From contig JAOPTX010000039.1 of NCBI GenBank assembly GCA_051532055.1, positions 1-22,531 of the forward strand: a DNA stretch of 22,531 nucleotides, read 5' to 3'. The DNA is from Fibrobacterales bacterium. Its GTDB lineage: Bacteria; Fibrobacterota; Fibrobacteria; Fibrobacterales; JAOPTW01. The notes under the pieces are model-generated. The model worked only from the letters and a program-made list of their open reading frames with translations. It was not told the origin of the DNA and made no database searches. Of this stretch, positions 1 to 21,235 are shown piece after piece. How positions within the stretch are numbered: the stretch's first letter is position 1; each line of letters starts with the position of its first letter. Made by a program: the position numbers and the translations under genes.

Positions 1-1526
1 GGGAGTCGTATTTCTGCGGCTATCTTATTGCAAAAATCAGGGAGCAGGCTTCTGCCGTCCATACGTTCTGGCCTTGCCCCCAGCCCCAAGAGGATAGTTC
101 GAGTCCACCGTTCCAAGATAGTTCTATAGGTCTTGGCAGTCGCATGGTGTGCTTCATCCACAATGATATAGTCATAATAGTCATAGCCCACATTCTGTTC
201 GAAAAACTCTTTTTGAGAGTCAAAGGTCTGTACCGAGATAAAGAGATGATCAAGGTCTCCCTTGTTGGGTTGGCTCCCTCCCACCCAGAGTTGCCCAAAG
301 TCACTATGCTCTACTCCCAGTACCGACCGAAAGGTTCCCCGTGCCTGTTTGAGGATCTCTGCCCGGTGTGCGATAAAGAGGAGCTTTGCCTTTCCGGTAT
401 TCTCTTTGCGATATCGTTTATAGTCGAAGGCCGAAATGACTGTTTTACCGGTACCCGTTGCCGATACTACCAAGTTACGAAAGTGGTCATGTTCGGTTCG
501 CTCGACACTCATTTTTTCGAGCACTTCTTTTTGAAAGGGATACGGTGCTATCTGAAGGTAATAGTTGCGTTCGTGGTCTTTTACGGCAAGTCCATTAAAC
601 TCAGAGCGTACCTTCTCTGCAGAGAGTGCCTTTTTGAATCGTTCTATACCGCCCAGCTCAAAGTCTTCGAACTCATTGCTGTTCCAATAGTGATCGAAGG
701 TTGCTTTTGCCTTTTCAATAATATGGAGGTTCTCTTGTGACGTCACCCGAAGGTTCCATTCTAATCCTTTGGTCAGTGCAGAGCGTGACATATTGGATGA
801 TCCGATATACGCGGTATCGTACTCCGTATCTCGTTCAAAGATATAGCTCTTAGCATGGAGTCGTTCATGGGTCGTATTGTAGGAGATCTTGATCTTGGTA
901 TTGGGGAGTCGTGAGAGAAAGTCCAAAGCGCGGGCTTCCGTTGCCCCCATATAGGTTGTGGTAATAATCCGTATCTCTACATCATCTCGATGGCTTATCT
1001 CTCTGAGTATTTTTTCGAAAATTACGAGGCCCGACCAACGGATGAAGGACACTATCAGATAAATTCTATTAGCCGAGAGCATGTCTCTCTCAATCTCGGT
1101 ATCTATAGATATATCGGAGTTACTTCCCGTAAACAGTGTACTGGTAGTCAGTCCTGTTTGGGGGAGTTTTCTTTGGACCTCTGCTTTGAGTTGTAGATCG
1201 GTCTTCCCCAGTTTATTGAGAAGTGCGTAGAGGATGTTGCTCTCTTGGATTTTCATTTCGTCTGCAACGTCGAGAGAGAGTTTTTGATCGACGTATTGGA
1301 TGAGGTCATTGCAGAAGGTTATCTGGTGTTCTATGTCACTGCCGTTCTCTTGCTGGACTTTTAAGGCGAGGTGGAGGACTTTTATTATGTGGTTGGAGAG
1401 GATGGTTACGGCTTGGGATTTATCTACGGGCTTTTGATCTTTGTAGTAGGTATCGCATTCAGTGCTCTGTAGCTTTTTTGCTATGGAGTGGGTTATGAGG
1501 GTTTCGTAGATTCCTGGGGCGAGCAT
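1..1526 (-). CDS. PLD-family nuclease + SF2 DEAH helicase (DUF3427-type restriction-like protein), 3'-truncated by the window edge
   Basis: Absent from the ORF track because no stop lies in the window. Manual translation from ATG at 1526 gives MLAPGIYETLITHSIAKKL...VSFIRWSGL...ITTTYMGATE...RLHAKSYIF...AYIGSSNMSRSALTKGLEWN (PLD HxK...GSxN...E), LVVSATGTGKT (Walker A), AHRAEI, IVDEAHH, PERMDG and IAAEIRL. HAK, Walker A, DEAH and PERMDG were confirmed in frame with the ATG. The DUF3427 domain itself would lie outside the window. Confidence 0.88.
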   Translation of the reverse strand, partial: MLAPGIYETLITHSIAKKLQSTECDTYYKDQKPVDKSQAVTILSNHIIKVLHLALKVQQENGSDIEHQITFCNDLIQYVDQKLSLDVADEMKIQESNILYALLNKLGKTDLQLKAEVQRKLPQTGLTTSTLFTGSNSDISIDTEIERDMLSANRIYLIVSFIRWSGLVIFEKILREISHRDDVEIRIITTTYMGATEARALDFLSRLPNTKIKISYNTTHERLHAKSYIFERDTEYDTAYIGSSNMSRSALTKGLEWNLRVTSQENLHIIEKAKATFDHYWNSNEFEDFELGGIERFKKALSAEKVRSEFNGLAVKDHERNYYLQIAPYPFQKEVLEKMSVERTEHDHFRNLVVSATGTGKTVISAFDYKRYRKENTGKAKLLFIAHRAEILKQARGTFRSVLGVEHSDFGQLWVGGSQPNKGDLDHLFISVQTFDSQKEFFEQNVGYDYYDYIIVDEAHHATAKTYRTILERWTRTILLGLGARPERMDGRSLLPDFCNKIAAEIRL

Positions 1527-1633
1527 GTAGTGTCTGGGTTAAGGGGTTGTGGGGAATATAGTATTTGAGGGGGTGGGGTTTTGTTTCATTTGATAATTAC
1601 AATATAGAAACAGGAAAAAGGTTTATGAAATTG

Positions 1634-1652
1634 CTCAGGTTTGTGACCTGAG
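1634..1652. terminator. Perfect 7-bp hairpin downstream of the DRT3 ncRNA; possible terminator or processing stem
   Basis: CTCAGGT-ttgtg-ACCTGAG. On the minus strand it is followed by caatttc, only a weak U-tract. Confidence 0.3.
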
Positions 1653-1679
1653 ATATACAGTGATCTTCCACCATAATAT

Positions 1680-1826
1680 ATGCTGGCCTTACGTCTATGT
1701 GTGTGCAGAATTAACTGCTCTCATTCGCTCAACTTCTCAAACCGTCGCTTGTGAAGGGTATTGCTTTAAGTATATCAGCCATTTACTACAAGTAGCATAA
1801 GACTGCAGAAACGTAAGGCACAGCAT
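1680..1826 (-). ncRNA. DRT3-associated structured ncRNA with ACACAC template tract
   Basis: Begins immediately after the drt3b stop. Ends pair: 1680-1694 (atgctggccttacgt) with 1811-1826 (acgtaaggcacagcat), 15 bp with one bulge. Internal hairpins at 1784-1797, 1733-1756 and 1705-1718. The minus strand reads GCAG-UUAAUU-CUGC-ACACACA-UAG-ACGUAAGGCCAGCAU. Confidence 0.8.
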
Positions 1827-3773
1827 TTAATACGCCTGAAGAATAACTTTCTTTTCTATGCAATTCAAGAGATTGACCTCATCCCAATCAATAAACCATT
1901 TGTTTTTTTTCAAATATTGCAATTCTTTTTCAATTTTATCATTTGTGTACTTACCAATGTATTCTAGATGTATTTTCTTTAAAAGTTTTGTTTTTAATGA
2001 GTCATCTAAATATGGACAAGTTAAAGTGTCTAAAATGAAATAACAGGACTCAGCATGTTGCATCATATTATTTGAATGTTCTAAATCACTTGTAACTTTC
2101 TTTATAAGTACTTTTTTCAATCCAATATATTGTTTATCATTTTTAATGTAGAACAGAATACTCATTGCTTCAAAATACGATATTGAGGGCCTGTCTATGA
2201 AAAAGAGGGCATGTATAAAGTTTGAAGATAACAAATACTTTTCCCCTAGTGTTGACAACCCTAATATAATATTAATTTTCTCTAAAGGAATTGCTTCTTC
2301 AGTATGATTATTAGAGGCAAATACCTGTTGTTTTAAAACAAGAATGGCATGGTCTAAAATACACTGTTTGATCGTGTCAATCTCTTCCGGAAAATATTTA
2401 GCAAAATATTTTGGTACAACAAGCATAGCTTGGCAAAGTTTATATGAAGAATTCACCGTAGGGTTAATAGAATATATATAGAACATAACGTCTAACAATA
2501 TTCGAATATTGTCTCTATAAACTAATACTCCTTTTTCCCCTACAAAATATGGTTCGTGCGATAAAATTCTATCCAGTCTATTTGTAAAAGCACTAATCAA
2601 ATAGCCCCCAGCAATTTGAATTCCATTTTCTATGTTATAACATCTCGATTTGATAGTATTAATAAGGCTATGTTTTAATTTATTATAATGAAATATTCTT
2701 TTAAGTCTGAGTTGTTTTTCCTCGTCAAGTTCACTTACTTTGTTGTAAAATTCAGAAATATCATTTTTTAAAAAATGTATCAAATTTGACTGAAGTGAAA
2801 AGAAAGGACGTTCATATAAAACTGATTTACTTTCGTTAATATGATAATTATATCGCAATAAACAACTTCGAATCGTGTCTTTGATCAATTTAATTTCTGC
2901 ATCAGTATTAGCAAAAATAAAAAAATCATCTACATATCTTTTGAAAGAGTAATTCTCATTATACTCCAACCCTTTTTCCACAAGTCTAGACATTATGTCA
3001 GTATCAATACTTTGGAGAATTATTTCTGAGAAAATCCTACTTATCTCTGGCCCAATAACAATCCCATTAGTTTCTTTATAGTTAATGTCTTGCATTAACT
3101 CATCAAATGAATTCACAAAGCTAGATGAAGAATTAAGATTGTGCTTAATGAATTCTTTTGAGCGAACTGCCCATGCAATACTATGAGTGTAAATACTGTG
3201 AAAAAATTTAGTTATATCAATTTTGTAATATTTTGAATACCGTTTCTCTAACAATAAAAATTCTTCTGAATTGAAAAATTTATAGAGTCTATTATATCCA
3301 CGATAGGCAAAATATGAAGATGGATGCCTTGATAATGCATCTTCTATTTTTGTATCAACTAAATCAGATTTATATTTCCCACTTTCCGAATAAGGATTAT
3401 TTACAAATGACATTGAACCAATTTTCTCTGGAGCACGAATCGAAGCTTCGCTAACACTTGCAAAATGACAAATCAGGTTTTCAAATTTTGAATAAAATTC
3501 TATACACTGTATTTGATTTTTAGGGTGTATTAATGAAAGGTGACGCAAACTATCTGGCCCATTTTTAATTGAATAGCCAAATGGTTTTGAATAGCGCTTA
3601 AAATTATTTTTCGAATTAATGCCTGCCAATATTTTATACAGAAATGAATATTTATGCTTTATTTGAAAATAAAACCCTTCATTCGAAAAATTGACTGGCA
3701 CTTCAAAGGGGAAGGATTCAGACAAAACAACCCTTTCAGCATCACCTCTATTTATATGAACTTTTTTAGCCAT
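1827..3773 (-). CDS. drt3b: Antiviral reverse transcriptase Drt3b (UG8 class)
   Basis: 648 aa. N-terminal ERVVLSESFPFEVP, RHLSLIHP, KIDITKFFHSIYTHSIAWAV, ETNGIVIGPEISRIFSEIILQ, RYVDDFFIF (Y280-D283), long helical C-terminus ending WFIDW...QAY. Overlaps a second RT gene by 8 nt. Confidence 0.92.
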   Translation of the reverse strand: MAKKVHINRGDAERVVLSESFPFEVPVNFSNEGFYFQIKHKYSFLYKILAGINSKNNFKRYSKPFGYSIKNGPDSLRHLSLIHPKNQIQCIEFYSKFENLICHFASVSEASIRAPEKIGSMSFVNNPYSESGKYKSDLVDTKIEDALSRHPSSYFAYRGYNRLYKFFNSEEFLLLEKRYSKYYKIDITKFFHSIYTHSIAWAVRSKEFIKHNLNSSSSFVNSFDELMQDINYKETNGIVIGPEISRIFSEIILQSIDTDIMSRLVEKGLEYNENYSFKRYVDDFFIFANTDAEIKLIKDTIRSCLLRYNYHINESKSVLYERPFFSLQSNLIHFLKNDISEFYNKVSELDEEKQLRLKRIFHYNKLKHSLINTIKSRCYNIENGIQIAGGYLISAFTNRLDRILSHEPYFVGEKGVLVYRDNIRILLDVMFYIYSINPTVNSSYKLCQAMLVVPKYFAKYFPEEIDTIKQCILDHAILVLKQQVFASNNHTEEAIPLEKINIILGLSTLGEKYLLSSNFIHALFFIDRPSISYFEAMSILFYIKNDKQYIGLKKVLIKKVTSDLEHSNNMMQHAESCYFILDTLTCPYLDDSLKTKLLKKIHLEYIGKYTNDKIEKELQYLKKNKWFIDWDEVNLLNCIEKKVILQAY

Positions 3774-4977
3774 TAGCCCAACAACCCCTGATTTTATACA
3801 ATTCAGTAGTACTGAATTTATAATATATTTTTTCTTGGAAACCTTTTGAAAAGGAATATTTCAGTAGATTTCGTTTTTTAGTGTCGCTGAGTTCTTCTGG
3901 AATGCCAACATATTTTCTACAACTTGTTAAAATTGTTGCCTTCAAAAATCTATCTAAACATTCAAGGCAAGTAAAATCATTAACATATTTATAATTAAAA
4001 TATATCCCTGTATTTATGTTCTTATCCATCTCTCTATTAAATACTGCATAATTACTAGTTATCATTTTAATTCTATCTTCAAGCAATTCAAAGTCGGGTT
4101 GTTGATAATATGAATAGAATGATTTTATAATTTTGGTCTTAAATTTATTGATTTTTTTTGGTGAAATAGAAATAGAAACTTTTCTAGAAGAGTCTTTGTT
4201 TGTATGGTTTGACGCCTTAAAGTGATAACCTAAATATTCAAACTCTGAAAACAGTTCTTTTTTCTTGTTTGAAACTACATCAGATACCAATGTAGCAGTA
4301 CATTTTTTATTATTGTATTGCAAACCATTTGGCAGCTTATATTGTTTTTTAAATAGCCTTAAATCTCTATTATCATTCAACAAAACAATAATATCATCAA
4401 CAAATCTTGAATGGAAAAAAACATTTTTATCTGTTGAAATTGAGTCATCATATTTTGACAAAATATATTCACCAAGAACAGCACTTACGGACAACCCTCT
4501 TGGCAACCCTTTAAATCCCTTACTTGAATAAAAATCAAAAACCGATTTTAATAGATCAACAGTTGTCCTTGAGATAGTAGGGTCATTGTGAAATATTTCA
4601 ATAATTGACTCCACATTTACTGATTCATAAAAACTCTTTATGTCCAGTCTTACAATTGTGTATGGATAATCTTCACATATTAGATTTATTAAATTGGATA
4701 CAATTATGTCTCTATTTTGTTGTTTCGCTCTTGTTACATTCTTCAAGTTTGAAGCAATCTTTCTTAGAACTAATTTATCGGATAATCTTTCAGGGTGATG
4801 TACACTTTTCCCATTCCGCTTGTGCATTAAAGAAACATACGAATCGTTAAAACCTGATTTTGATCTTTCAACAGCCAAAGAGACTATAGCATCTACTTCC
4901 TTAAATATTTCCACATCAAAATCACCGTTTCTGAAGCAGTTTCTTAAAGCTCGATCTGTAAATGACTGTCTGATCAT
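3766..4977 (-). CDS. drt3a: Antiviral reverse transcriptase Drt3a (UG3 class)
   Basis: 403 aa. RT motifs RLDIKSFYES, GLPRGLSVSAVLGE, RFVDDIIV, FEYLGYHF, plus C-terminal DRIKMITSN...GIYFNY typical of Drt3a. Its stop overlaps the drt3b start (ATGGCTAA). Confidence 0.92.
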   Translation of the reverse strand: MIRQSFTDRALRNCFRNGDFDVEIFKEVDAIVSLAVERSKSGFNDSYVSLMHKRNGKSVHHPERLSDKLVLRKIASNLKNVTRAKQQNRDIIVSNLINLICEDYPYTIVRLDIKSFYESVNVESIIEIFHNDPTISRTTVDLLKSVFDFYSSKGFKGLPRGLSVSAVLGEYILSKYDDSISTDKNVFFHSRFVDDIIVLLNDNRDLRLFKKQYKLPNGLQYNNKKCTATLVSDVVSNKKKELFSEFEYLGYHFKASNHTNKDSSRKVSISISPKKINKFKTKIIKSFYSYYQQPDFELLEDRIKMITSNYAVFNREMDKNINTGIYFNYKYVNDFTCLECLDRFLKATILTSCRKYVGIPEELSDTKKRNLLKYSFSKGFQEKIYYKFSTTELYKIRGCWANG

Positions 4978-5148
4978 TAAATTCGTAGTCCCAAAGTTTA
5001 GAATATTTGCAAATAGAATTTAAAAATAATTCTGACATATATTACATTTATATAACTCTTAGCACTAAAAAGAAACTTCTGTTTCAAATCAATTCGTGCA
5101 TTAAATTATGTTAGACTAAGACGGGCCATTTCAATTAAACGGTTAGGA

Positions 5149-6423
5149 TCATACAACTTTTTTGAACTTGCCAAAATCATATTTATCTAATAAGTCATTA
5201 AACTCTACGGCTGATATCTTTTCATTCTGGCTAATTGCAGCAATAAAACCTTCCAGCTTGTAATTCTCTCTTATTTGACCATTTTCACTAAATACCTGAA
5301 CAATTTTTTCAACTTGACCTTTATCAAAATCAGAATAGAAAGTTTTAATTATTGGGTAATATTCATCAACTTCTTTAAATGATTTTGTCATTTCAAGTAA
5401 TTCAATTAACCTATCACACCATTCACTTGGTATGAAAAACATATTGTGATTTAGAAATTCAGATTTTGTAATTCTCGCAATTCTAAATTTAGCGCTCTCC
5501 TGCAACTCTGCCACGTCTATCAAGTCATATAACTCATCTAAATCTTTGGACGGCATAGTTCTTGTAAATTGTTGATATTTTTGTTTTACATCATCATCCA
5601 AAAATAACCAAAAATTTGAAATAGAGCAGATAAGCTCTGTAGCTTTATGAAATGAAATATCATCCAATTTCTTAATTAAGGTTGAGATATTCTGGTCAAA
5701 TGTTTTATCATATACATCTTTACGCAATACCTCTATTGCTTCTAATGCGTACATACATCTTAATGTTAATTTATAATCAACTTCTTCAAACAGTATCTTC
5801 TTTAATAATATTATGATAAAGTTTCTAACTAAACTAATTCTTGCATTATTAAATGGGCTATGAGTTAAAGCTACAACAGCTTTCTCGAGCTTTGTTGGGA
5901 AGTATTCTGATTCAACCTCTTTAATCAAAATATTCAAAGCATTTTTACCTTGTGCTGGAGGATATCTTAATAAGGTGTTAATCGCTGTTAAGATATGGAC
6001 CCTAGCCAACTCAGCGGGCGGATTAAATATCTCACCGTCAATATTCATAGATGGGTGAGCACATCTGTGCCTATCCTGAAATATTCTATCAAGGTCAATA
6101 AATTCAATAGAAGAAATCAATTCCAATTTATCCTTAGCAATTGTTAATATATTCCTCTCTAATTCAAGTGATTTAGAAATATCACCGGTGTCTTTTGCAT
6201 CTTCAAATTTTTGATATTGAACAATACCTTCTGGATCCTCAGCCAAAGAGAGTTCTTTTAATTTCTCAATTAAATCGAAAACCACTGCTATCCATGTGGA
6301 AACTATTGCAGACCTAAAAGCTCCAGCCTTATAGCACAAAATAGCTTCATTGATATATTTTTTTGCTTTCTCATCTCTACATTTTAATACCAATTCATCC
6401 AAATCCGACAAAAACGATGCCAT
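5149..6423 (-). CDS. HEPN-like (RxxxxH) domain protein with helical C-terminus; putative defence RNase
   Basis: 424 aa. N-terminal YINEAILCYKAGAFRSAIVSTWIAVVFD helix and DRHRCAHP (Rx4H) motif resemble DUF4145/HEPN-type domains. Confidence 0.6.
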   Translation of the reverse strand: MASFLSDLDELVLKCRDEKAKKYINEAILCYKAGAFRSAIVSTWIAVVFDLIEKLKELSLAEDPEGIVQYQKFEDAKDTGDISKSLELERNILTIAKDKLELISSIEFIDLDRIFQDRHRCAHPSMNIDGEIFNPPAELARVHILTAINTLLRYPPAQGKNALNILIKEVESEYFPTKLEKAVVALTHSPFNNARISLVRNFIIILLKKILFEEVDYKLTLRCMYALEAIEVLRKDVYDKTFDQNISTLIKKLDDISFHKATELICSISNFWLFLDDDVKQKYQQFTRTMPSKDLDELYDLIDVAELQESAKFRIARITKSEFLNHNMFFIPSEWCDRLIELLEMTKSFKEVDEYYPIIKTFYSDFDKGQVEKIVQVFSENGQIRENYKLEGFIAAISQNEKISAVEFNDLLDKYDFGKFKKVV

Positions 6424-6745
6424 ATTCTTATTCCTTTGCCATTGACAATAGTACAGTTTACGTTAAACAAAATATAACAATCGAATCTAATAAAACAGAG
6501 TCAATTGGAAGACGGCACCAACGATGTAAATAAATTTCATTGATCGTTCCTATCATATATCACTATAAACTTTTTGGGGATTACGAAGTATTTTTATACG
6601 CAGCGCATCGAAAAAACATTACACATTACGGCTGTTATAATAACTATCTGTGAATCTTTTCCCTGAATGTAACTTATCATAAAGAATTGCCCGCTTATTT
6701 TTAAATTGCAATTGCCCAGAATACATGGATGCTGGAGGACCGCAC

Positions 6746-7936
6746 TTAAATTTTAACGATCAGTTCCTTAAACGCTACAGACATTTCTGACACATTTTGA
6801 AATCTTTTCGATTCATCAGCTGACATTCCTTTTTCTAAAAATCCTTTGATGTCCGGATTCTTCAATTTTTCAAAATTACTTTTACCCGTTAGAACAAAAA
6901 GTATAACTCTTGTCAATGCGTATGTTTCATGAACCATAGTGTAGCTACTAAACCCCTGTAATAAAAGATTTGGATCATTATATGCACCCTTAATAGAGCT
7001 ATCTACACTAGTCAGAGTATTTTCAGGTGATTTTACTAAGCCAAAATCTGACAGTTTTACTATCAGGGCATCATCGTATTGTTTCAACAAAATATTGGTA
7101 GGGCTAATGTCTCTGTGTAAAATATTTTTTTGTGACAAATAATCGAACGCTTTCAATATTTGCCGAATAATGGCCACACGCCCATGTTTATCAATTTTAT
7201 TATTCCGTTCCAATATATATTTGTGCAAGGTAAAGTCTGCATACTCCATAATATATTCATTCAAGGCCTCAATATACTTATAGACTTCGAGTACATAAGG
7301 TGAATTTATTTTTTTCATAACTAGGAATTCATTCTTGAAACGCTCTATTTCTTTGGCTGACAAATCTTCTTTAATTCGCTTTATGGCAAATATTTTGTCA
7401 TAAAAACTATCGTGAAACATAGATACATTCGCATAGGATCCTCCACCTATTATTTTCCTCGGAAAGCTAAGATCGATGTTCTTGTTAACTACCTCACCGT
7501 AATAATCCAAGAGGAACATTGGAGAGATCTTCATGATATTAATTCGTTCAAAATCGAAGGGTATTTCAGACCCTCCACTAGTTGATAAAAAGGATTTACA
7601 CTCATCTATTTTAGAACCGTAGTAATCGTTTAAAGTAAATGAGCACTCTGAATTCATTAAATTATTTTTTAATTCTAATATATGATCTATAACTTGGATC
7701 AAGTCTCTACTTTCATGAGCAGTATAATGTCCGTTACCTATACGAGAATTTAGATATATAAATAGGTCATTAAGAAACGCATGGAGAATGACAAATATCT
7801 CTTTAAGGTCTTTGTGGCCTACATTCTCATAAATTGGTTGATAGGGAGCAACATGTAAATCATAATTTGAGTATTGACTTACAACATTTACTATGTAGGA
7901 ATCAACAACCTTTTTCTTATTCATCCTCTTCTTCAT
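6746..7936 (-). CDS. Hanks-type Ser/Thr protein kinase with AbiJ-NTD-like N-terminal domain
   Basis: IGGGSYANV Gly-loop, FAIK, RFKNE, IMEYAD, HRDISPTNILL, KLSDFGLVK. The N-terminal ~140 aa (HYTAHESRDLI...CKSFLSTSGGSEIP) resemble the N-terminal domain of abortive-infection proteins. Alternative start at 7924. Confidence 0.85.
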   Translation of the reverse strand: MKKRMNKKKVVDSYIVNVVSQYSNYDLHVAPYQPIYENVGHKDLKEIFVILHAFLNDLFIYLNSRIGNGHYTAHESRDLIQVIDHILELKNNLMNSECSFTLNDYYGSKIDECKSFLSTSGGSEIPFDFERINIMKISPMFLLDYYGEVVNKNIDLSFPRKIIGGGSYANVSMFHDSFYDKIFAIKRIKEDLSAKEIERFKNEFLVMKKINSPYVLEVYKYIEALNEYIMEYADFTLHKYILERNNKIDKHGRVAIIRQILKAFDYLSQKNILHRDISPTNILLKQYDDALIVKLSDFGLVKSPENTLTSVDSSIKGAYNDPNLLLQGFSSYTMVHETYALTRVILFVLTGKSNFEKLKNPDIKGFLEKGMSADESKRFQNVSEMSVAFKELIVKI

Positions 7937-8306
7937 CCTCGTCAGCTAACAAATCATCAAGTATATCGTCAATACCCGCCGCCTGCTCTCTAACCGCTTC
8001 AAAAAGACTATTCAATGCTGGTGAACGGGGAGCATACTCCCAAATCAATACCCCACTATCTTCAATAGCAAGTACAATCTCTACGGACCACGAATAATTA
8101 TCTTCATCAAAGTAGTATCTATATCTTCGTTCATATATGGAAAAATATTTATCCTTATAATAAACACTAAAATACAAAAACACTTCATCATCATTGGCTC
8201 GAATAAGAAACAAGGGAGGGTCAGCACGTTCCCATTCAATTTTGTCTTTATAAGTTGCTTGTAAAAGTTTAACTATTAATTTTTCTGCTTTTTGATCAAC
8301 GTTCAT
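7917..8306 (-). CDS. Hypothetical protein with highly acidic C-terminal tail
   Basis: 129 aa ORF, 1 nt from the upstream gene and overlapping the kinase start. Ends DDILDDLLADEDEEEDE. Confidence 0.7.
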   Translation of the reverse strand: MNVDQKAEKLIVKLLQATYKDKIEWERADPPLFLIRANDDEVFLYFSVYYKDKYFSIYERRYRYYFDEDNYSWSVEIVLAIEDSGVLIWEYAPRSPALNSLFEAVREQAAGIDDILDDLLADEDEEEDE

Positions 8307-8307
8307 A

Positions 8308-8790
8308 TCAATCCCACTTAAAGTCTTTCTCTGACTGTTGTAAAGTAACTACTATAGTGCTTAAATCATGACAAACATCCCAAGCTTGTTCATGAGACAT
8401 TTTATAAAGAGGCTCAGGCATAATGAAATATTTTTTTGGATTTAACTTAGGTATTATATCTGATATAAGCTTTTTTTCTTGCTTGCCGTCTATCTTACTT
8501 GATAACGAATATATCAAGCCTTTACATTTTGTCAAATTTTTCAGAAACTGGTCTTTTTCATCAGAATAATTTTTCACTTGTTTAAACATTAGTTCTGTAA
8601 GTTTAAACAGTTCAGAATTAATTTCTGGCAATCTTGCCTTTTTAATAAATTTCTTCTTTAATCCTTTCGTTTCGACAAGTATCCATATGGTCATTCCTAA
8701 AGCAACAATTGTGGCTAGAACCCCAATATTATTAAACCAATCAGGAGCATTGCCATCGATATTTGAAAAGAGATTTATTAGTATTTCCAT
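8308..8790 (-). CDS. Hypothetical single-pass membrane protein
   Basis: 160 aa. Hydrophobic IGVLATIVALGMTIWILV followed by a basic stretch (KGLKKKFIKKAR) and a helical domain. Confidence 0.7.
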   Translation of the reverse strand: MEILINLFSNIDGNAPDWFNNIGVLATIVALGMTIWILVETKGLKKKFIKKARLPEINSELFKLTELMFKQVKNYSDEKDQFLKNLTKCKGLIYSLSSKIDGKQEKKLISDIIPKLNPKKYFIMPEPLYKMSHEQAWDVCHDLSTIVVTLQQSEKDFKWD

Positions 8791-8967
8791 AAGTTTTAAA
8801 AATTAATAATATAGAATATTATTATGTATATTACATGTTAAATCCCATCTAGCTAGGGCTGCCGGGTGTGTATAGCAGGGCAATACCAAACCACCGAAAG
8901 TAGTCCGGACAAGTGTGACAGCTCACTACAAATTTGCTCTTTAATCAAATTAAAACCATACATAAGA

Positions 8968-10161
8968 TTAACCTTTTAACAAAAGAAGCCCTACATTACA
9001 CATCCAGACATAAATATCATACTTCCAAACAAACACCATTAAAGTTACTATAAAAACCCACACAGTACCCATCTTTATTATCGCAACTTTTCTTAGTTGT
9101 TTAGGCAATATTTCGTTCTGCTGACAACTAAGTTCTTCATATATCTCTTCAAGATTTAAATCACCACTTATCTTATCTCTAAATTTTTCAATATCTTTTT
9201 CAATCGCTTCAAACCCTTCTTCTAAATTTTTAATAAACACAAACCAAATAAAAATAAAAAATATGGCCCCCAACAGAAAAAAACCTGTATCTTTAACAAC
9301 ATCAATTTCCGAAAAACTCATTCTTGTTAATAGGAATATATAGGCAATGGGTATTAAAAATATCGAATTTGCCTTACTATTTATTGTTTCATATAATTTA
9401 TCTGTAAGGGAATGGAAATACTCTGTGGAAGCAGTCTTTATTTTATCAAAAGAAAAACCCGACAAATATAAAGAAAAGCTTTTATCATAGTTATATAATA
9501 ATATATCCCAATTTTTGATTAGACATTGAAAGGTCGCATCACGCCCATTTAGTACATTGATCATTTCATTAATGAAAATAAGACGTCTTTCTGCAGAATC
9601 AGGTCTATCCGAAAGTTCTTTTTTAATATCACCTATTCTATCAATTCGATTAATTAAATCAATTTCACAATATTCTATTTTTAAAGACAACCCCTGCCCG
9701 TGTTGGAAAAAAAACAATTCTACATCACCAGAGCTCTTCTTCTGATGATCTGAATTTTCGCATAAAAACTCTATTAATTTCAATATTGAATAATAAGCTT
9801 TAATTTTTTCATTTGACCCTTCCTCCTCCTCAAAATATTCTAATTCATGAATATAAAACCCAGGTTGATTTACTTGTATTTTATTACCATTAATGAAATC
9901 AGTTAATTTTTCATAATAAGGCAAGCTTGATGGAGAAAGAACAATTTGGACCCGATCATTTAGCTGAAGTTCTGCTGGATCAACAATTGCGCAATTATTA
10001 TCACCAAAAACTTCCCTCACACAATCATCCCATAGATTCTTTAAATTTTCTATGTCATCTTCACTTAAGGAAAGTATAAAACCATTCACAACTCCAATTG
10101 TAAATGTTACGTTTTCTAAACGTTTTCGAATTGCGATAAATTTATTCAAACTTTCAATCAT
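8968..10161 (-). CDS. Hypothetical membrane protein (soluble N-terminus, three C-terminal TM helices, coiled coil)
   Basis: 397 aa. Contains YLSGFSFDKIK, TM segments IFLIPIAYIFLL, FFLLGAIFFIFIWFVFI and VWVFIVTLMVFVW. Overlaps the upstream gene by 8 nt (ATGATTGA). Confidence 0.8.
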   Translation of the reverse strand: MIESLNKFIAIRKRLENVTFTIGVVNGFILSLSEDDIENLKNLWDDCVREVFGDNNCAIVDPAELQLNDRVQIVLSPSSLPYYEKLTDFINGNKIQVNQPGFYIHELEYFEEEEGSNEKIKAYYSILKLIEFLCENSDHQKKSSGDVELFFFQHGQGLSLKIEYCEIDLINRIDRIGDIKKELSDRPDSAERRLIFINEMINVLNGRDATFQCLIKNWDILLYNYDKSFSLYLSGFSFDKIKTASTEYFHSLTDKLYETINSKANSIFLIPIAYIFLLTRMSFSEIDVVKDTGFFLLGAIFFIFIWFVFIKNLEEGFEAIEKDIEKFRDKISGDLNLEEIYEELSCQQNEILPKQLRKVAIIKMGTVWVFIVTLMVFVWKYDIYVWMCNVGLLLLKG

Positions 10162-11140
10162 TTAGTAAGTCATCAATTTTTTCTTGTGGAACATTCGTGA
10201 TAGTCACATTATTCTTTTCAATGACAACTTTACTAGTTTTAAGCAACTCCTTATCAAATTCTAATTTATATCCTTTCTCACTAATAGTTGCCTTGTAAAA
10301 ATATTTAATATCTGACTTCTTCGTTATTCTAAAGTTTCCACTAACATGTAAATCGTCATTCATTTGAACATAGTCTATAAAATCGCGTGGTAATTCATGA
10401 TTTACATAAGAAGATATTGCATCAAGAAAAACATCTTTATCTTCTAGTCTCGATTTATCCATGTACTCAAACACATCTTTATTTATCTTGTCCTTTAACT
10501 CAACATTAAATTCTTTTTCCTTCATATATTCTTGCATGGCTTTTTTAAGGCTATTACAATTTGAGGTTGAGGATGCCAAGTCAGTGTTACCAATAAATTT
10601 TTGAAAATATTGGGATACATCTCTTGTTCCCTTAATGAAGGCTAAATAGGAGTCATCCTTATTAATCCATTTTGACAAATTAATTCTATTAGCACGTGCT
10701 AACTTTTCTATATCAAGGGTTTTAAGTACAGCAATATTTAAATTTTTATCATCGATCGTAAACTGCTCTGATTTATCTAGCATCATTGTAACAAGAAATT
10801 CAGCCTTTCCTTCTTGATAGTGAACAAATACCACATACCCACCAGTTGTCCCATGGACATCTATTTCCTTTTCCAATAATTTCATCGAATCGTAAGTGAA
10901 GTCAAAAAAGCCATCATCTTTTAAATATTTTTGTACATAACTTTGAAAAGGGTACGCCTTAGAGTCACTATGGAACATACCATAAGTTGGATTTTTGGTT
11001 TTAAACACCCTCACTAGCCTGTCTACAAATCCCATTACAATAATATTTTTCTCATCTAAGAGTTTCTTTGAATATTTTGATTCTAGCCTAGAATCAACAT
11101 CTTTAATTATATGGTGTAATACAATTTTTTTTAATATCAT
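10154..11140 (-). CDS. Nucleoid-associated protein, NdpA/YejK (NA37) family, accessory homologue
   Basis: 328 aa. MILKKIVLHHIIK start, TTGGYVVFVHY, LDIEKLARANRINLSKW, YLAFIKG, VSQYFQKFIG are characteristic YejK/NdpA blocks. RBS-like TAAGG lies upstream. Confidence 0.82.
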   Translation of the reverse strand: MILKKIVLHHIIKDVDSRLESKYSKKLLDEKNIIVMGFVDRLVRVFKTKNPTYGMFHSDSKAYPFQSYVQKYLKDDGFFDFTYDSMKLLEKEIDVHGTTGGYVVFVHYQEGKAEFLVTMMLDKSEQFTIDDKNLNIAVLKTLDIEKLARANRINLSKWINKDDSYLAFIKGTRDVSQYFQKFIGNTDLASSTSNCNSLKKAMQEYMKEKEFNVELKDKINKDVFEYMDKSRLEDKDVFLDAISSYVNHELPRDFIDYVQMNDDLHVSGNFRITKKSDIKYFYKATISEKGYKLEFDKELLKTSKVVIEKNNVTITNVPQEKIDDLLND

Positions 11141-11164: not shown

Positions 11165-14100
11165 TTATACCAAACAAACCCGTTCATCAACATCCGAAAC
11201 AGCCTTCTGCTGTATCAAACTATCAAGCTGCCCTTGCAATATCCCAACCATAGCCCCAGTAACCCTAGAAAACCCCAGCCTCGAAGCAACCTCAGAAAAG
11301 CAAGCCTCAGGTCTAACACTCACTGACTCTTGAATCACCACAAGCAACGCCTTCTGTATCTCACTAAAAGGAACAAGCTCCAACTTTTTCTCACTACTCG
11401 GCAAGCTCTGTCTATTACGAACGACAACTTCATTCCTTGGATTTTCAATAAACGTTCCATCATATGCATATCCATGTACCGAAGATATTTTAGTAGCAAT
11501 CTGATTCATTCGAGTCTGTATTTTATTCCCACATCGAGAAATCCCCGCTGTAGATAACAGCCTATTTATTACAGCCTTAAGAGAAACCGGGGACTCAATT
11601 GAAACAACCTTAATTAAAGCATTCCCAATATCCTGATCACTCACTTCACTAAAGTCGCCAGTAAAAGACCAATAGCTGTATTGAGACAAATCTGCCATCT
11701 TGTAAGATTCCATCTCAGGCTTTACATGCTCAATACTACTCCGAGATATATTAGGTCCAACTTGCTCTACTGTTGGGGCTTTACGCACTACTTCCAATGG
11801 TTTAGATAATTCCTTTTCAATTCTCTCTTTTAGGCGGATAACTTCCCTATCACTATTCCTAAACCAGTCCGTACTCCATATTCTATGAAACACCCACCCT
11901 TTACTTTCTAGAACAGCTTGTCGTAATCTATCACGATCCCGCGCATTTGCACTAGAATGATAAGACGCACCATCACATTCTACCGCCAACATGTATCGCC
12001 CTTTCTTCCGAGGGTCTACCACTGCTAAGTCAATAAAGAACCCTTGACTCCCTACCTGAGGTACGACTTCATAGCCAAGACCTTTAATTGCATCATAGAC
12101 CGCCTCTTCAAAAGGACTATCCATTTCTTTACCCGTTTCATGCTCAACGGTATGGTTACCCGTTTGAGCATATTTGAGAAAAGACTTTAGTACCTTAACC
12201 CCAATAGGGCTTGTTTCATTCGTACGCATGTCATCAGCCGTGAAGTTACTAAATATTTTCATATGCTGCTTAGCACGACTGATCAATACATTCAGCCTCC
12301 GCTCACCACCTACGTTATTTATTGGACCATAATTCTGAGAGAGAATACCTTCTTCAGTTCTTCCGTAACCGATACTGATATAGATGACATCACGCTCATC
12401 ACCCTGTACGTTCTCAAGGTTTTTAACAAAGAAGCTCTCGCCACCAGGCGATGAGTTTAAGAATTCTTCGAGCACCTCATGTTTTCGTCTCAATATTTCC
12501 ACTTCCAAAAGTATCGCTTCTTTCTGTGAGATACTAAAGGCAACTGCCCCTAAGCTCAAATGCGGATACTCTTGAGCATGCTTTAATATCGCTAAGGAAA
12601 GATGCCGCGCTTCTTCTCTATTAGTCCGTGTAATACCTTTATCATATACGGTATCCGGTAAATACTCAAGAGCAAGCCCTTCGATCTCTGCAGAAGCCCC
12701 AGAACTCGGGAATACTTTAAGCTTTCCTCCATAAAATTCTTTATTTGAGGTCATGATAAGTGATTCATGTTTCGATCGATAGTGCCACTCCAACATCACC
12801 TCTGGAGTACCTTGCGCTAAAAACAGCCCCAATATACTCTCTATCTCTGCGGTAACATCATTTTCAAGATCATCATCTTCAACATCAACGCTTCGTGACA
12901 TAAACGTTGTAGGTGGCATCTGTTTACTATCCCCCACTACCACTGTCTGTTTACCCCGACAGATTGCCCCAATAGCATCAGGAACCGTTACCTGAGATGC
13001 TTCATCAAATATGACCAAATCAAATTGTATGTTACTATTCTGCAAATAAGTCGCCACCGACATAGGGCTCATCATAAAAATTGGTTTAGACTTAAGAATA
13101 GCACCGCCAGAAAGCTCAAGTAGCTTCCGTACAGGCAATAGACGACGCTTTTTATTCATTTCACGCCTAAGGACTTCCATTTCTCCGGGAGCGTGTATAT
13201 TTGGTAATTCCTTATAGAGCTTATCTACTAATGTTTCCTGAGCAAAATTAAAGCTCTGTGAGTCAAGATCTTTGAACTCTTCTATAGCCCCTTCATGGGC
13301 AACCCTATCAAAGTGTTTTAATTGTTCGGACCCACTATAGTATTCATTTACCACAGAAGCCCAATATTTATACCAAATACAGTGATACAAAGCATCTCCG
13401 GTATGTGCCCATGTTTTAACAAATGCCGCTAACTGAGGTAATCCTCTGCTTGCAAAACCTTCAATTATTTTATTAAGCCGAGTCATGTTATAGAGCTCAC
13501 TCATAGAATCACGCCATACAGGAAGAATAGACTGTACATCACTAATCAATACATCAGCTTGAATTATCTGAGCGGTATCTGGCAGATCTAACAGCCCCTG
13601 CAATTCCCCGAGCCACTCTGCCCATCGGCTTGTTTTTTCTACCAACTGCGCCAAATCAGTACTGAGATATTTAAAATCAGCACCTCCATCTAATAAACTA
13701 ATCAAACTCTCCGGTAACTCACCCTTTCCTATTTCTCCATGAAGAGCAAATATCCATTCAGCAAGTCCGGTGAGTACACTCCAATCAGATTTCTCACCCT
13801 GCCACTGAACTCCAAAGAGTGTGCTTAATAAATTTTCTTGAAGCTTCCACTCTTTGTCTTTCTCCTTTAACTCAAGTAACCTATCTACCCATTCAAGGTA
13901 GTGGGTACTCTCCTTAGGCAATGAATTGACACACAGGGACTGTAACCGCTTTTTAGCCTTTCTATAGTCACCAGAAAGGAACTTCCACCATTTATCTACT
14001 TTACCCAGCAAGCTACCGCGTATTTCAAGCAATGCTTGATCACTTGAGGTGGTAAAAGCCTGCGCTATAAACTGCTCTTTACATACCGCCCGTAGTTCTG

Positions 14101-15916
14101 ATGCAGATTTTCCTTGTTCGAGGGTTGTACTAATAATAGAACTGCGGTCACTCCACTCATGAGTATTAACTTTAACCCCTGATAATTGAGGTGCATCAAT
14201 TGCTCTTTGCGCCGCCTTAATCACCCCTTCGAGTTGAGATACTTTAACAATAAGGTCGAGATGCAGTTCTTTAGAAAGGGACTGTTTGAGTAGATCTATA
14301 CCACTTATAAGTTCAATACCCGCTGATATTTTTTGTGCAATCTCTTCTTGTAACACCGGACTTGCTTCAGCTAATGTTATTTCTCTAAATGGATGTACAT
14401 TAGGCACTCCCATAGCATCAAGATGTGTAGAAAGTGTTTTCAGCTCTATATCGAGATCGCTTAATTCTTCCATGCCCTCATTAGAATGTGTTATGAAGGT
14501 TATATCGGGAATATCAATGCCTTGTATGTGGGAAGCATGCTTCATAAACTTACCCAATGCAGTGATATAATTAACCCCTAAGGAGCCAATAGGTGCACTC
14601 ACCGATTTCACATACTCATCTAAATTCTGGCGTACATTTGAAAGCCTCTTCCTCTCTAATGTACGATGGGGTATTTCTGGCTTCGGCTGATAGAGTACAT
14701 CCCTGAGACTATCAAGTACCTGCTTAGGCCTACTCATATGAGAATGCAGTTCTAATACAGCGCCTCCCAGATGGCATTCGTCCAAACGGTGCTTTACCAC
14801 TTCAAGAGCGGTAAGCTTTTGTGCAACAAACAGCACCTTTTTATCACGAGCAACGGCTTCTGCTATCAGATTAGTAATTGTTTGGGATTTGCCCGTACCT
14901 GGAGGTCCTTGAATGACAGTATTCGCCCCTTTCAACACACTCGATATGGCAAAGGTCTGAGACGAGTCTGAATCCTTTACTAAATGAAGTCGTTCGGGTT
15001 CCTTTACCTCAACATTGCCACCCTCACTCAAAACACCATCGAGTATCTCACCATCCCTCACAAAGCCATCTTTAAAGAGTGAACGAATAACTGAATGGTT
15101 TTCTAAGGACAGGTCGCCCTGCCAATTTTTTGGATCAAGGTCCTTGTACATTTGAAACTTACCAAAAGAGAAAAAGCCCAGTTCAATCTTATTTTCCAAA
15201 ACAGACCAGCGCTCTAGTGCACTGATTGACTCTGTAACTGCCGCAAAGTACTTCTGTATCCCTTCTTCTTTTTCAAAATAGTCTTCAAATCGTGGTAATT
15301 CTACTCTATAATCGTTCTTAAACTTGGCAATCAATGTCTCATTATTCGATAACTCTATACCGGTATAGCGAATTTTAAAGCCTGCTTGGGAGTTTTTACG
15401 ATACAGCTCTACAGGCAATAATATTAGTGGTGCAAATCGTTTAACTTTCGAAGCATCAGCTTCATACCACTCTATAAAGCCAATAGCAAGATAGAGAATA
15501 TCTATGCCACGTTCTTGATAATACGCCTGTGCCTCATTGTCAATTTTAAGTAATCGTATGTCGAGCTTATCAGCGTGGAGTTGTGTTTGTAAGTGCAAAT
15601 CCTCAAACCGCTCATCTCCCATTGAATCACTAAGATACTCTTGTAACGGTGGAAGTTTTTCATAGTCATCAGGAAGCTCACCCTTGGCAAGTATTTCCTC
15701 TTCTACCTTGTACGCATCGGGAACAGGCAAAAAGGACATTGCCTTGCCTTGATTGATCAATATGTCAAATATCGAATCTGATTTTTCATCTACGACTGAT
15801 ACAGATTTATGTCCCCTTGGCTGAAAATGCAGGAGTGTATTACCTCGTATACCGAGATCAAGAAGCTTAATTCTAATTCGTTCTATCTGATCATTTATCT
15901 TATTCTCTTCTACCAT
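11165..15916 (-). CDS. DUF4011 - SF1 (UPF1-like) helicase - Vsr/MTES_1575-like nuclease - DUF3320 protein (Hhe-type anti-phage protein)
   Basis: KLLDLGIRGNTLL and LYLAIGFIEW...APLILLPVEL (DUF4011); DSDSSQ, IQGPPGTGKSQTITN, MMSPMSVA, IFDEASQ, VGDSKQMPP, HYRS, NLENVQGDERD, RRLNVLISRA (helicase); SPFEEAV...IDLAV...ECDGASYHS...RDRLRQ...GW...RIWS (nuclease). Start placed at ATG 15916 (MVEENK, preceded by AGGA); the track ORF extends to 15970. Confidence 0.9.
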   Translation of the reverse strand: MVEENKINDQIERIRIKLLDLGIRGNTLLHFQPRGHKSVSVVDEKSDSIFDILINQGKAMSFLPVPDAYKVEEEILAKGELPDDYEKLPPLQEYLSDSMGDERFEDLHLQTQLHADKLDIRLLKIDNEAQAYYQERGIDILYLAIGFIEWYEADASKVKRFAPLILLPVELYRKNSQAGFKIRYTGIELSNNETLIAKFKNDYRVELPRFEDYFEKEEGIQKYFAAVTESISALERWSVLENKIELGFFSFGKFQMYKDLDPKNWQGDLSLENHSVIRSLFKDGFVRDGEILDGVLSEGGNVEVKEPERLHLVKDSDSSQTFAISSVLKGANTVIQGPPGTGKSQTITNLIAEAVARDKKVLFVAQKLTALEVVKHRLDECHLGGAVLELHSHMSRPKQVLDSLRDVLYQPKPEIPHRTLERKRLSNVRQNLDEYVKSVSAPIGSLGVNYITALGKFMKHASHIQGIDIPDITFITHSNEGMEELSDLDIELKTLSTHLDAMGVPNVHPFREITLAEASPVLQEEIAQKISAGIELISGIDLLKQSLSKELHLDLIVKVSQLEGVIKAAQRAIDAPQLSGVKVNTHEWSDRSSIISTTLEQGKSASELRAVCKEQFIAQAFTTSSDQALLEIRGSLLGKVDKWWKFLSGDYRKAKKRLQSLCVNSLPKESTHYLEWVDRLLELKEKDKEWKLQENLLSTLFGVQWQGEKSDWSVLTGLAEWIFALHGEIGKGELPESLISLLDGGADFKYLSTDLAQLVEKTSRWAEWLGELQGLLDLPDTAQIIQADVLISDVQSILPVWRDSMSELYNMTRLNKIIEGFASRGLPQLAAFVKTWAHTGDALYHCIWYKYWASVVNEYYSGSEQLKHFDRVAHEGAIEEFKDLDSQSFNFAQETLVDKLYKELPNIHAPGEMEVLRREMNKKRRLLPVRKLLELSGGAILKSKPIFMMSPMSVATYLQNSNIQFDLVIFDEASQVTVPDAIGAICRGKQTVVVGDSKQMPPTTFMSRSVDVEDDDLENDVTAEIESILGLFLAQGTPEVMLEWHYRSKHESLIMTSNKEFYGGKLKVFPSSGASAEIEGLALEYLPDTVYDKGITRTNREEARHLSLAILKHAQEYPHLSLGAVAFSISQKEAILLEVEILRRKHEVLEEFLNSSPGGESFFVKNLENVQGDERDVIYISIGYGRTEEGILSQNYGPINNVGGERRLNVLISRAKQHMKIFSNFTADDMRTNETSPIGVKVLKSFLKYAQTGNHTVEHETGKEMDSPFEEAVYDAIKGLGYEVVPQVGSQGFFIDLAVVDPRKKGRYMLAVECDGASYHSSANARDRDRLRQAVLESKGWVFHRIWSTDWFRNSDREVIRLKERIEKELSKPLEVVRKAPTVEQVGPNISRSSIEHVKPEMESYKMADLSQYSYWSFTGDFSEVSDQDIGNALIKVVSIESPVSLKAVINRLLSTAGISRCGNKIQTRMNQIATKISSVHGYAYDGTFIENPRNEVVVRNRQSLPSSEKKLELVPFSEIQKALLVVIQESVSVRPEACFSEVASRLGFSRVTGAMVGILQGQLDSLIQQKAVSDVDERVCLV

Positions 15917-15966
15917 CTGTATTCCTATCAAAATGTCTCTACGAGAAATTATTCTATTTGTCACCA

Positions 15967-16326
15967 TCAACCATCACAAGCACACCCAACACTCTTATGA
16001 CAACTCTTCCAGCGCGCAATACAACTATTCCCACACGCCTTCCCCTTTTTACAAACCTTACAACAGACAATCACCTCACTACCGACCTCACCACCGACGT
16101 CATCATCAACCCCTACCTCAGATCCACCACCATCCAAGCTATCAGCCTGAACCGCAACAACCTTAACCGGAGCAACCGTACGAGTCAAATACGTATCTGT
16201 CGGCGCACCATGACAATGAAACCCACCAGTCTTGCTATTATTATGACACCCATCAGCATTAGTCCCCCCTCCATGAGAGAACCCCGTAACCGAAAGCATC
16301 AATACTACTATTACCATCGTTATCAT
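15967..16326 (-). CDS. Small secreted YHYH-like protein with C-terminal Cys-rich module
   Basis: Signal peptide MITMVIVVLMLSVTGFS, then HGGGTNADGCHNNSKTGGFHCH, an acidic Gly/Val linker and CCKVCKKGKACGNSCIARWKSCHKSVGCACDG. Start placed at ATG 16326 (GGAG upstream); the track ORF begins at 16404. Confidence 0.75.
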   Translation of the reverse strand: MITMVIVVLMLSVTGFSHGGGTNADGCHNNSKTGGFHCHGAPTDTYLTRTVAPVKVVAVQADSLDGGGSEVGVDDDVGGEVGSEVIVCCKVCKKGKACGNSCIARWKSCHKSVGCACDG

Positions 16327-20413: not shown

Positions 20414-21235
20414 ATGGAAAGCATTTTCAACTATCTTGATTACCAGGAGTATCTAAAAGATATTTTTGAAATTATGCGCAAAAATGAGCCTGGCTTCACT
20501 TTAAAACTGGTTAATCACGAAATCAATGCAACATCGAGCGGGTTTATTTCAAATGTGATGGCGGGGAGAAAAAACCTGACCCATGCGCAGGTACCAAAGA
20601 TTAGTAAACTCCTTAAGCATACCAAAAATGAGAAACGCTATTTTGAAGCACTCGTCTATTTCACTCGCGCAAAAAATTCAGACGATAAAAAACACTACTT
20701 TAATACAATGGTCTCCTTGCAAAAGCTGAAGCTTAAGAAAATTGATACTCAATGCCTGAGCCTTTTTTCCGAGTGGTACTATGTATGCATACGTAATATT
20801 TTGAAAGTGTATAAGTTTAATGGGAACTATAAAGCATTGGCGAAAAAAGTCACCCCTACTATAACAGAGAGTGAGGCACGGAAATCTATCGAATTACTGT
20901 TAGAGCTCGGTTTTATTAAAAAAGGTGGACACCTTGGCTTCACTTTAGTTGACCCTGTAATAACTACAGGTGATGAGGTGAAGTCATTTTTTCTGAAACA
21001 GTACCATAAGGCAATGTTGAACAATGCGCAAGAAGCTCTTGATTCGATTTCTGCTAAAGAGCGTGATATGTCAGTTGTTTCACTAACGTTATCTGAGGAG
21101 ACCTATAAAAAGGTGAAGAGTGAGGTGCAACAATTAAGAAAAACTATAATGAAACTCACCGAAGAAGATAAAAAACCCGACAGAGTGTATACTTTGAATA
21201 TGCAACTCTTTCCTACTTCACAAAAACTACTATAA
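20414..21235 (+). CDS. TIGR02147 family protein (HTH + DUF4423)
   Basis: IFNYLDYQEYLKD, SSGFISNVMAGRKNLT, YFEALVYF, FSEWYYVCIR, ERDMSVVSL, VYTLNMQLFP are typical blocks of this Fibrobacter/Bdellovibrio-expanded family. Confidence 0.9.
   Translation: MESIFNYLDYQEYLKDIFEIMRKNEPGFTLKLVNHEINATSSGFISNVMAGRKNLTHAQVPKISKLLKHTKNEKRYFEALVYFTRAKNSDDKKHYFNTMVSLQKLKLKKIDTQCLSLFSEWYYVCIRNILKVYKFNGNYKALAKKVTPTITESEARKSIELLLELGFIKKGGHLGFTLVDPVITTGDEVKSFFLKQYHKAMLNNAQEALDSISAKERDMSVVSLTLSEETYKKVKSEVQQLRKTIMKLTEEDKKPDRVYTLNMQLFPTSQKLL

Follow-up and report, generated by a model that had tools for sequence, protein, structure and literature searches.

The stretch of DNA analysed here, referred to below as the window, is one whole contig of 22,531 nt (contig C39) within a 5.17-Mb, 94% complete assembly of a Fibrobacterales bacterium from a marine metagenome. 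On its reverse strand it carries two overlapping reverse transcriptase (RT) genes, drt3a and drt3b, followed directly by a structured noncoding RNA (ncRNA), the three parts of which the anti-phage system DRT3 is made:

3766..4977, reverse strand: drt3a, encoding a Class 2 (UG3) RT of 403 aa, with an ATG start and no internal stops
1827..3773, reverse strand: drt3b, encoding a Class 1 (UG8) RT of 648 aa, with an ATG start and no internal stops
3766..3773, reverse strand: the 8-nt overlap of the two genes, ATGGCTAA, where the drt3a stop lies within the drt3b start
1680..1826, reverse strand: core of the predicted DRT3 ncRNA, about 147 nt, starting 1 nt after the drt3b stop

DRT3 has been characterised in Escherichia coli. 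According to Wang, Yoneyama et al. (2026, PMC13174585), Drt3a uses a conserved 5'-ACACAC-3' in the ncRNA downstream of drt3b to make poly(dTdG), and a stem-loop of that RNA, stem-loop 4, stops read-through. Drt3b makes poly(dCdA) without RNA and primes on Y666, with E22 acting as a gate for dA, R241 as the switch for dC and R71 stacking on the base; a natural Glu-to-Asp variant of the gate retains partial activity. The paper also describes the annealing of both strands to double-stranded DNA (dsDNA), the restraint of the system by RecBCD, its triggering by lambda Gam and the requirement for both RT active sites in defence in E. coli, and it cites Deng et al. (2026, Science) as a second paper on the mechanism of DRT3. 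A review (PMC13314766) gives a 6:6:6 complex and poly(GT/AC) dsDNA. A Drt3b hexamer likewise belongs to the higher-order assembly of DRT3. A first-pass annotation of the window had ascribed to characterised Drt3b a synthesis that needs no nucleic-acid template, depends on conserved Glu and Arg residues and is primed by the protein, which agrees with PMC13174585. The novelty that it implied is not supported, as DRT3 and its mechanism are already published (PMC13174585; Deng et al. 2026), and the locus is a divergent copy of a characterised system, not a new kind.

Family membership and conserved residues of the two reverse transcriptases

Both RT genes are intact, as had been proposed: their frames are open and both catalytic Asp pairs are present, FVDD in Drt3a and YVDD in Drt3b. 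The span given for the system at first, 1827-4977, is right for both genes but stops short of the RNA, which falls just outside it at about 1680-1826. The 8-nt overlap suggests that drt3a and drt3b are translationally coupled. An identical 8-nt overlap is annotated in the drt3a/drt3b pairs of Acetobacter and Novosphingobium plasmids, and in the four annotated plasmid loci that we inspected drt3a always precedes drt3b on one strand, with overlaps of 8, 8, 11 and 0 nt.

We compared the two proteins with PADLOC, NCBIfam and Pfam profiles and, by sequence search, with the Protein Data Bank (PDB). The best PADLOC profile for Drt3a is Drt3a PDLC02175 (E 6.3e-117, 389 bits, residues 1-402 on 1-416 of 417), followed at 96.7 bits by UG17 as the next class, and the protein passes the curated cut-off of the NCBIfam equivalog NF041747 with 358.7 bits against 200. 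For Drt3b the best profile is Drt3b PDLC02176 (E 7.1e-194, 644 bits, residues 2-648 on 2-651 of 651), the classes Drt6 and Drt4 match more weakly (151 and 120 bits), and the curated cut-off of equivalog NF041748 is passed with 592 bits against 350. In Pfam the generic RVT_1 domain alone was found in either protein. A profile search had been named beforehand as a check on the assignment; in it both RTs group with the DRT3 profiles and with no other RT class. In the PDB, Drt3a matches 9z6y_A, 'Drt3a reverse transcriptase protein', over residues 2-401 (E 1.6e-54), while Drt3b matches, in each case through its last residue, 9z6y_H, 'Drt3b reverse transcriptase protein' (E 1.2e-111), and 26cz_A, a SUMO-fused RNA-directed DNA polymerase (E 2.3e-89).

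The catalytic residues of Drt3a are D112 and F192-V-D194-D195. D112, D194 and D195 are invariant in the 120 aligned Drt3a proteins, in which position 192 is Phe in 88 and Tyr in 32. The E. coli enzyme, of 426 aa (9z6y_A), has YVDD; since Phe is found at this position in 88/120 proteins, FVDD is the majority form of Drt3a and no oddity. By analogy with E. coli, the Drt3a of the window would be an RNA-templated poly(dTdG) polymerase.

For Drt3b we aligned the window protein with the best 119 of 768 matches at E <= 1e-20 (n=120), and mapped residues to the published enzyme through an alignment with 26cz_A. After subtraction of 108 tag residues this mapping reproduced the numbering of PMC13174585, from which fit 26cz is probably the enzyme that Wang et al. 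studied. The catalytic residues are D186 and Y280-V-D282-D283; E24 lies in SFPFEVP, R246 in GPEISR, and Y648 is the final residue. The columns of the alignment, with the published residue in brackets where one was mapped, are as follows:

E24 (E22): Glu in 118, Asp in 2 of 120 Drt3b
R77 (R71): Arg in 120/120
D186 (D182): Asp in 120/120
F191 (F187): Phe in 120/120
R246 (R241): Arg in 120/120
Y280 (Y276): Tyr in 120/120
V281 (V277): Val in 119/120
D282 (D278): Asp in 120/120
D283: Asp in 119, Asn in 1
Y648 (Y666): Tyr in 119, a gap in 1

As shown in this list, the three residues singled out in advance as candidates for specificity and priming, E24, R246 and Y648, fall on near-invariant columns, where the published enzyme has its dA gate (E22), its dC switch (R241) and its priming residue (Y666), respectively. 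The last of these is Y774 in 26cz_A, and in 9z6y_H the residue opposite Y648 is Y650, at the terminus. In 112/120 aligned Drt3b, including the window protein, the chain ends in Tyr; that of 9z6y_H does so as well, but in the protein of Wang et al., which has 667 aa, Tyr is penultimate. Y648 is thereby a candidate priming residue, and Drt3b would be, by homology, a protein-primed, protein-templated poly(dCdA) polymerase.

In an AlphaFold2 model of Drt3b, made with the 120 aligned sequences (pLDDT 85.5, pTM 0.87), the RT core is followed by residues 327-623, which are all helical, and by a tail with low confidence at its end, 646-648, that is, an architecture of RT core, helical-repeat domain and C-terminal tail. 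The solved folds nearest to the model are DRT6 9wy8_A (E 2e-14, TM 0.75 on the target), UG15, AbiK, DRT4 and Abi-P2, and no DRT3 entry is among the matches from a library with entries released up to 2026-04-08. Since the fold search gave only other Class 1 RTs, it is the sequence search that links Drt3b to the DRT3 structures. Drt3b resembles the Class 1 enzymes AbiK, Abi-P2, DRT4 (UG15) and DRT6 in that its RT core has no thumb and that it carries a helical-repeat domain; its synthesis, too, would be primed by the protein and independent of a template, as theirs is. DRT4, however, makes single-stranded DNA of random sequence, whereas in Drt3b the Glu/Arg gates enforce alternating dC/dA, and Drt3b works with a second RT.

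The structured RNA downstream of drt3b

From the stop of drt3b to the next gene there are 300 nt, which contain the tract CACACACA. The elements of the predicted RNA, read on the reverse strand, are these:

1809..1826, reverse strand: 5' strand of the closing stem P1, 17 bp with a bulged U1820, pairing with 1696..1680
1705..1718, reverse strand: hairpin GCAG-UUAAUU-CUGC, predicted, directly 5' of the template
1698..1705, reverse strand: template tract CACACACA, with ACACAC at 1704..1699, unpaired in the minimum free energy (MFE) fold and flanked by the hairpin and the 3' strand of P1
1680..1696, reverse strand: 3' strand of P1, from the predicted fold and the duplex

The ACACAC next to this hairpin lies 122 nt past the drt3b stop. 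The RNA of 1640-1830 folds with an MFE of -55.8 kcal/mol (z -3.47), a stability that none of 200 shuffles attained, and further internal stem-loops lie inside the fold besides P1 and the template hairpin. The P1 duplex itself has -31.7 kcal/mol, with z -4.8 when the 3' flank was shuffled 100 times. A scan of 1400-5300 against Rfam, with E up to 1, returned no matching family.

We tried 26 comparison loci (numbered with L below), from viral contigs (18 loci) and plasmids (8 records). A tblastn match to the last 250 residues of Drt3b was found in 21 of them, which gave, together with the window, 22 stretches of 330 nt after drt3b; near-duplicates among these are L026-L028, and L029, which equals L036. 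Of the five loci dropped, three were checked by coordinates, and L034 and L037 were left out as truncated matches. Sense-strand ACACAC is present in all 22 stretches, mostly 118-170 nt past the stop, and in the three further loci checked as well. GTGTGT occurs in none of the 22, the window included, and any other dinucleotide-repeat hexamer in 0-3 of them. The statement that the sense strand of the ncRNA offers an AC tract but no GU repeat is therefore borne out, as CACACACA is there and GTGTGT is not found within the 330 nt. Over the whole window ACACAC occurs 6 times against 6.9 expected and is not rarer than chance, so that it is the placement and strand of the hexamer, not its presence, that are informative.

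The secondary structure is also shared. When the 32 nt following the template were tested for a duplex with the upstream region in the 22 stretches, z was <= -1.6 in 17 of them, and the duplex was absent or weak in five (L019, L022, L029, L036 and L040). Sixteen RNAs, that of the window and those of 15 relatives, showed a common architecture when folded singly. A MAFFT alignment of the RNAs of the 15 relatives (A3) was dropped, as only the 3' third aligned and the 5' halves were out of register. RNAalifold on eight relatives, without the window, predicts the closing stem and the hairpin adjacent to the template; 14 of its 23 consensus pairs, most of them in the closing stem, are preserved through two-sided changes, and the consensus hairpin has three pairs, one of them with three double changes. 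The window hairpin at 1705-1718 would, by analogy, be the element that bounds the template, the positional counterpart of the published stem-loop 4.

A covariance model (R1) built from these eight relatives (alignment A4), with the window excluded, has a single match in the window, at 1831..1675 on the reverse strand. It scores weakly, with 14.5 bits and an E of roughly 0.082, and has the stem, the hairpin and CACACAC in register; we take it as consistent with a DRT3 ncRNA but not as decisive. On 14 held-out sources other than the window, R1 properly found one, L027, a near-duplicate of a training row; L040 gave two trivial partial matches and the other 12 none. Since only 1/14 of the held-out sources was properly found, R1 cannot define the family.

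In two traits the window RNA differs from many of the relatives. Its template tract has 8 nt, where 17 of the 21 relatives have only 6-7 nt. Its closing stem is near-perfect, like those of L011 and L030, and lacks an internal loop, CCAAUAU on the 5' strand and UGAGG on the 3' strand, that is present in seven of the eight aligned relatives. We observed this loop in the ncRNA regions of L012, L017, L020, L024-L028 and L031. The loop may serve for protein docking and mark subtypes of the RNA.

Proposed mechanism and alternative readings

We conclude that the locus is very probably a genuine, intact, three-part DRT3 anti-phage system that works, by homology, as E. coli DRT3 does (PDB 9z6y/9z6z, 26cz). 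The two have the same three parts in the same order on one strand, with overlapping genes; the window keeps the catalytic motifs, the Glu and two Arg of the gates and the C-terminal Tyr, and both its proteins cover their profiles in full. In both the ncRNA comes directly after drt3b, with the AC template beside a stem-loop within a closing stem, and RecBCD genes are present in the host. The host of the window, a probable member of the Fibrobacterota from a marine metagenome, is unlike that of E. coli DRT3, and what this copy would make, how it would prime, what would trigger it and what it would do to the cell are put forward by analogy. In such a mechanism Drt3a would bind the ncRNA and copy the exposed CACACACA repeatedly into poly(dTdG), with the adjoining hairpin as the boundary of the template. 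Drt3b, using no nucleic-acid template, would start DNA on the hydroxyl of Y648 and add dA and dC in strict alternation, E24 picking dATP and excluding dT and dG, R246 reading dC and switching position, and R77 stacking on the base. Poly(dTdG) and poly(dCdA) would then anneal to poly(GT/AC) dsDNA. The host RecBCD would hold the repeat DNA at a low level; once a phage inhibits RecBCD, or sets off the system in some other way, the repeat DNA would accumulate and growth would stop (abortive infection). The use of a short ncRNA template that is copied repeatedly into tandem repeats, with an adjacent structure limiting read-through, is a logic shared with DRT10 (UG17) and the telomerase-like Class 2 UG RTs (PMC13174585). 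DRT10 has a SLATT effector and no second RT, whereas here the partner would be Drt3b and the output double-stranded.

The genome has a candidate for the restraining nuclease. Genes for recC-like, recB-like and recD proteins lie adjacent to one another in the same assembly:

46341-55668 of contig C16 of the host assembly (G000), reverse strand: recC-like, recB-like and recD

The recD product, with 360 bits, is above its curated cut-off. From their sequences these genes appear to encode a divergent RecBCD, the host's equivalent of the enzyme by which DRT3 is restrained in E. coli. Seven small contigs, with a depth of 2-4, that match the operon at 99% or more are present in a metatranscriptome library from the sample that is the probable source of the assembly. 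The pieces listed fall within 2897-4027 and 4910-5278, with one of them spanning the junction of drt3a and drt3b. The seven contigs are a weak hint that the operon is transcribed. No contig from this library covers 1400-2840, where the ncRNA is, or 4151-4805, which at a depth of 2-4 says nothing on the expression of the RNA.

Several results weigh against our conclusion. The nearest homologue of Drt3b is 43% identical among the best 119 of 768 matches, and in tblastn the window protein is 28.9% and 28.5% identical to the copies on an Enterobacter and an E. coli plasmid, respectively. R1 scored the window weakly and is narrow, having missed the ncRNA regions of the 12 other held-out loci. A scan for promoters and terminators found no terminator-like site at the locus, and its 29 promoter-like sites were not above the 23.1 expected from shuffles. 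The products of recC-like (364 bits, cut-off 583) and recB-like (436 bits, cut-off 696) both score below their curated cut-offs, for which reason the RecBCD function of the host is putative. Finally, the organism is present at ~417x in the DNA run, so that DNA may have been carried over into the RNA library and transcription is a hint only. Separately from these points, the scan showed a match TTGAAA-18-CATAAT at 5134..5105 on the reverse strand, upstream of drt3a, to which we attach no evidential weight.

The description of the locus as divergent proved apt, with nearest homologues 43% (Drt3b) and 45% (Drt3a) identical, both of them probably from one 3,470-nt contig. Between Drt3b of the window and the other 119 proteins of the alignment identity is 33.6-42.9%, and among those 119 it averages 48%. 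In the tree the window Drt3b is the sister of a single protein, the one 43% identical to it, within a small deep clade with four others, including that of Leptospira ryugenii, and its terminal branch measures 0.61 versus a median of 0.19. As for the host, a probable origin in the Fibrobacterota had been suggested, and we agree: among the best 120 relatives of RecA the three with a named organism all belong to this phylum (Fibrobacteraceae, Fibromonadales and Fibrobacteria), and a paralogue of a family is present in the window:

20414..21235: TIGR02147 'Fsuc_second' paralogue, from NCBIfam

In the Atlas the taxonomy of the TIGR02147 protein is ambiguous, since clusters of the Bdellovibrionota and of the Fibrobacterota alike reach 0.97-0.98.

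We searched the Drt3b profile across 296 genomes of the phylum and found a full-length protein in one, the window's own; the second match is confined to the RT core, in a 523-aa frame, and the profile search of a genome of the same genus gave no Drt3b. The corresponding scan of 400 genomes in the class of a Pantoea genome found three with Drt3b, too few for a comparison set, a single-protein search of genome contigs two loci, and the phage collection none. At L016 (G297:C12:611418-612596), in the Bradyrhizobium genome, the Drt3a match contains one in-frame TAA, and this copy may be broken.

It is possible, but doubtful, that the window locus and one close relative form a separate deep DRT3 lineage that was laterally transferred to the Fibrobacterota, and that its ncRNA, with a plain stem and an 8-nt template, docks Drt3a differently or resets the template in another register.

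Quite improbable, in our judgement, is that the locus is DRT3 by descent but silent or non-functional here, either as unexpressed cargo of a recently acquired island or through the want of a compatible trigger or nuclease partner. It would fit such a history that no other 9-kb stretch sampled in the assembly has as low a GC as the one that holds the locus (see below), that its Drt3b is the sole full-length one among the 296 genomes of the phylum, with none in the genome of the same genus, and that the site scan found no clear promoter or terminator. However, the frames are open and all catalytic, gating and priming residues, the RNA template and the stems are kept, which argues for continuing selection; in addition, recC-recB-recD are present and contigs from the RNA library match the operon.

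Less probable still is a DRT3 variant on a deep, sparsely sampled branch whose output or register has changed, by copying of a longer template or into a different repeat, or whose trigger has. The isolated position of Drt3b in its small clade, with a sister at 43% and a long terminal branch, would suit it, and so would the 8-nt template (6-7 nt in 17/21 relatives) and the closing stem without the CCAAUAU/UGAGG loop. Yet the residues that determine the AC product of Drt3b, E24, R77 and R246, show no change. The tract, moreover, consists of AC repeats alone and can therefore encode nothing but GT repeats, and the two strands can be complementary only if both stay unaltered.

That the RTs belong to another class (DRT10/UG17, DRT4/6, AbiK, a retron or a group II intron) and are merely DRT3-like has practically no chance of being right, since the weaker matches (UG17 96.7, Drt6 151, Drt4 120 bits) are such as any RT gives, the DRT3 profiles score 4 times higher and over full length, the curated equivalog cut-offs are passed for Drt3a and Drt3b alone, and the paired layout with a downstream ACACAC RNA is specific to DRT3; the PADLOC and NCBIfam scores, with the sequence matches to PDB 9z6y and 26cz, refute it.

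If the locus is read as an intact DRT3, as we prefer, its main value is a clean and correct annotation, given that NCBI's family models would name both genes. At about 29-43% identity no gate or priming residue has changed with respect to E. coli, nor has the AC template, which supports protein-templated poly(AC) synthesis as a property of the whole family. The sense-strand ACACAC after drt3b, present in all 25 loci examined, extends over sequences far more diverse than the 32 RNAs of the published model. Within the phylum the system was otherwise unseen among the 296 genomes searched, and the RNA of the window is built more plainly. As a distant and compact homologue from a marine member of the Fibrobacterota, the locus could serve as a second model for work on the structure or on the dependence on RecBCD. 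Should it be true that systems of this deep lineage remain active against a RecBCD that differs greatly, the logic of a nuclease-guarded repeat dsDNA would be portable across phyla.

The surrounding low-GC stretch

The stretch 1527-10526 has a GC content of 30.7% versus 39.7% for the genome, and none of 1375 sampled 9-kb windows is as low. With DRT3 and several other defence genes in it, this stretch looks like a laterally acquired defence island. The neighbours of the DRT3 locus are the following:

3-1526, reverse strand: type IV methyl-directed restriction enzyme (PLD-nuclease and ResIII helicase), E 6.7e-96, cut by the contig end
5149-6423, reverse strand: PD-T7-3 homologue of 424 aa, directly upstream of drt3a, full length, E 2.7e-27
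6746-8790, reverse strand: Ser/Thr kinase region, with a kinase of 396 aa (domain 161-395) that resembles Stk2, mad6 and PD-T4-6
8968-11140, reverse strand: overlapping pair of a 397-aa protein with a weak DS1_2 match (E 3e-7, far below cut-off) and a YejK/NA37 protein
11165-15970, reverse strand: 1601-aa DUF4011/superfamily-1 helicase/MTES_1575 nuclease/DUF3320 protein

The restriction-enzyme gene at 3-1526 has a GC content above that of the island. For the 424-aa PD-T7-3-like protein no family was matched in Pfam or NCBIfam. The N-terminal 160 aa of the kinase are without an assigned domain, and upstream of it there are two small frames that belong to no family, at 7917-8306, overlapping the start of the kinase, and at 8308-8790; the kinase and these two frames could be a kinase-based defence operon. 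In the pair at 8968-11140 the YejK/NA37 nucleoid-associated protein reaches 104 bits for DS1_1, with a cut-off of 330, and the pair may be a distant DS1-like system. The 1601-aa protein has a full-length match (1731 bits) to PDC-S37, a PADLOC candidate, and a partial one to Hhe.

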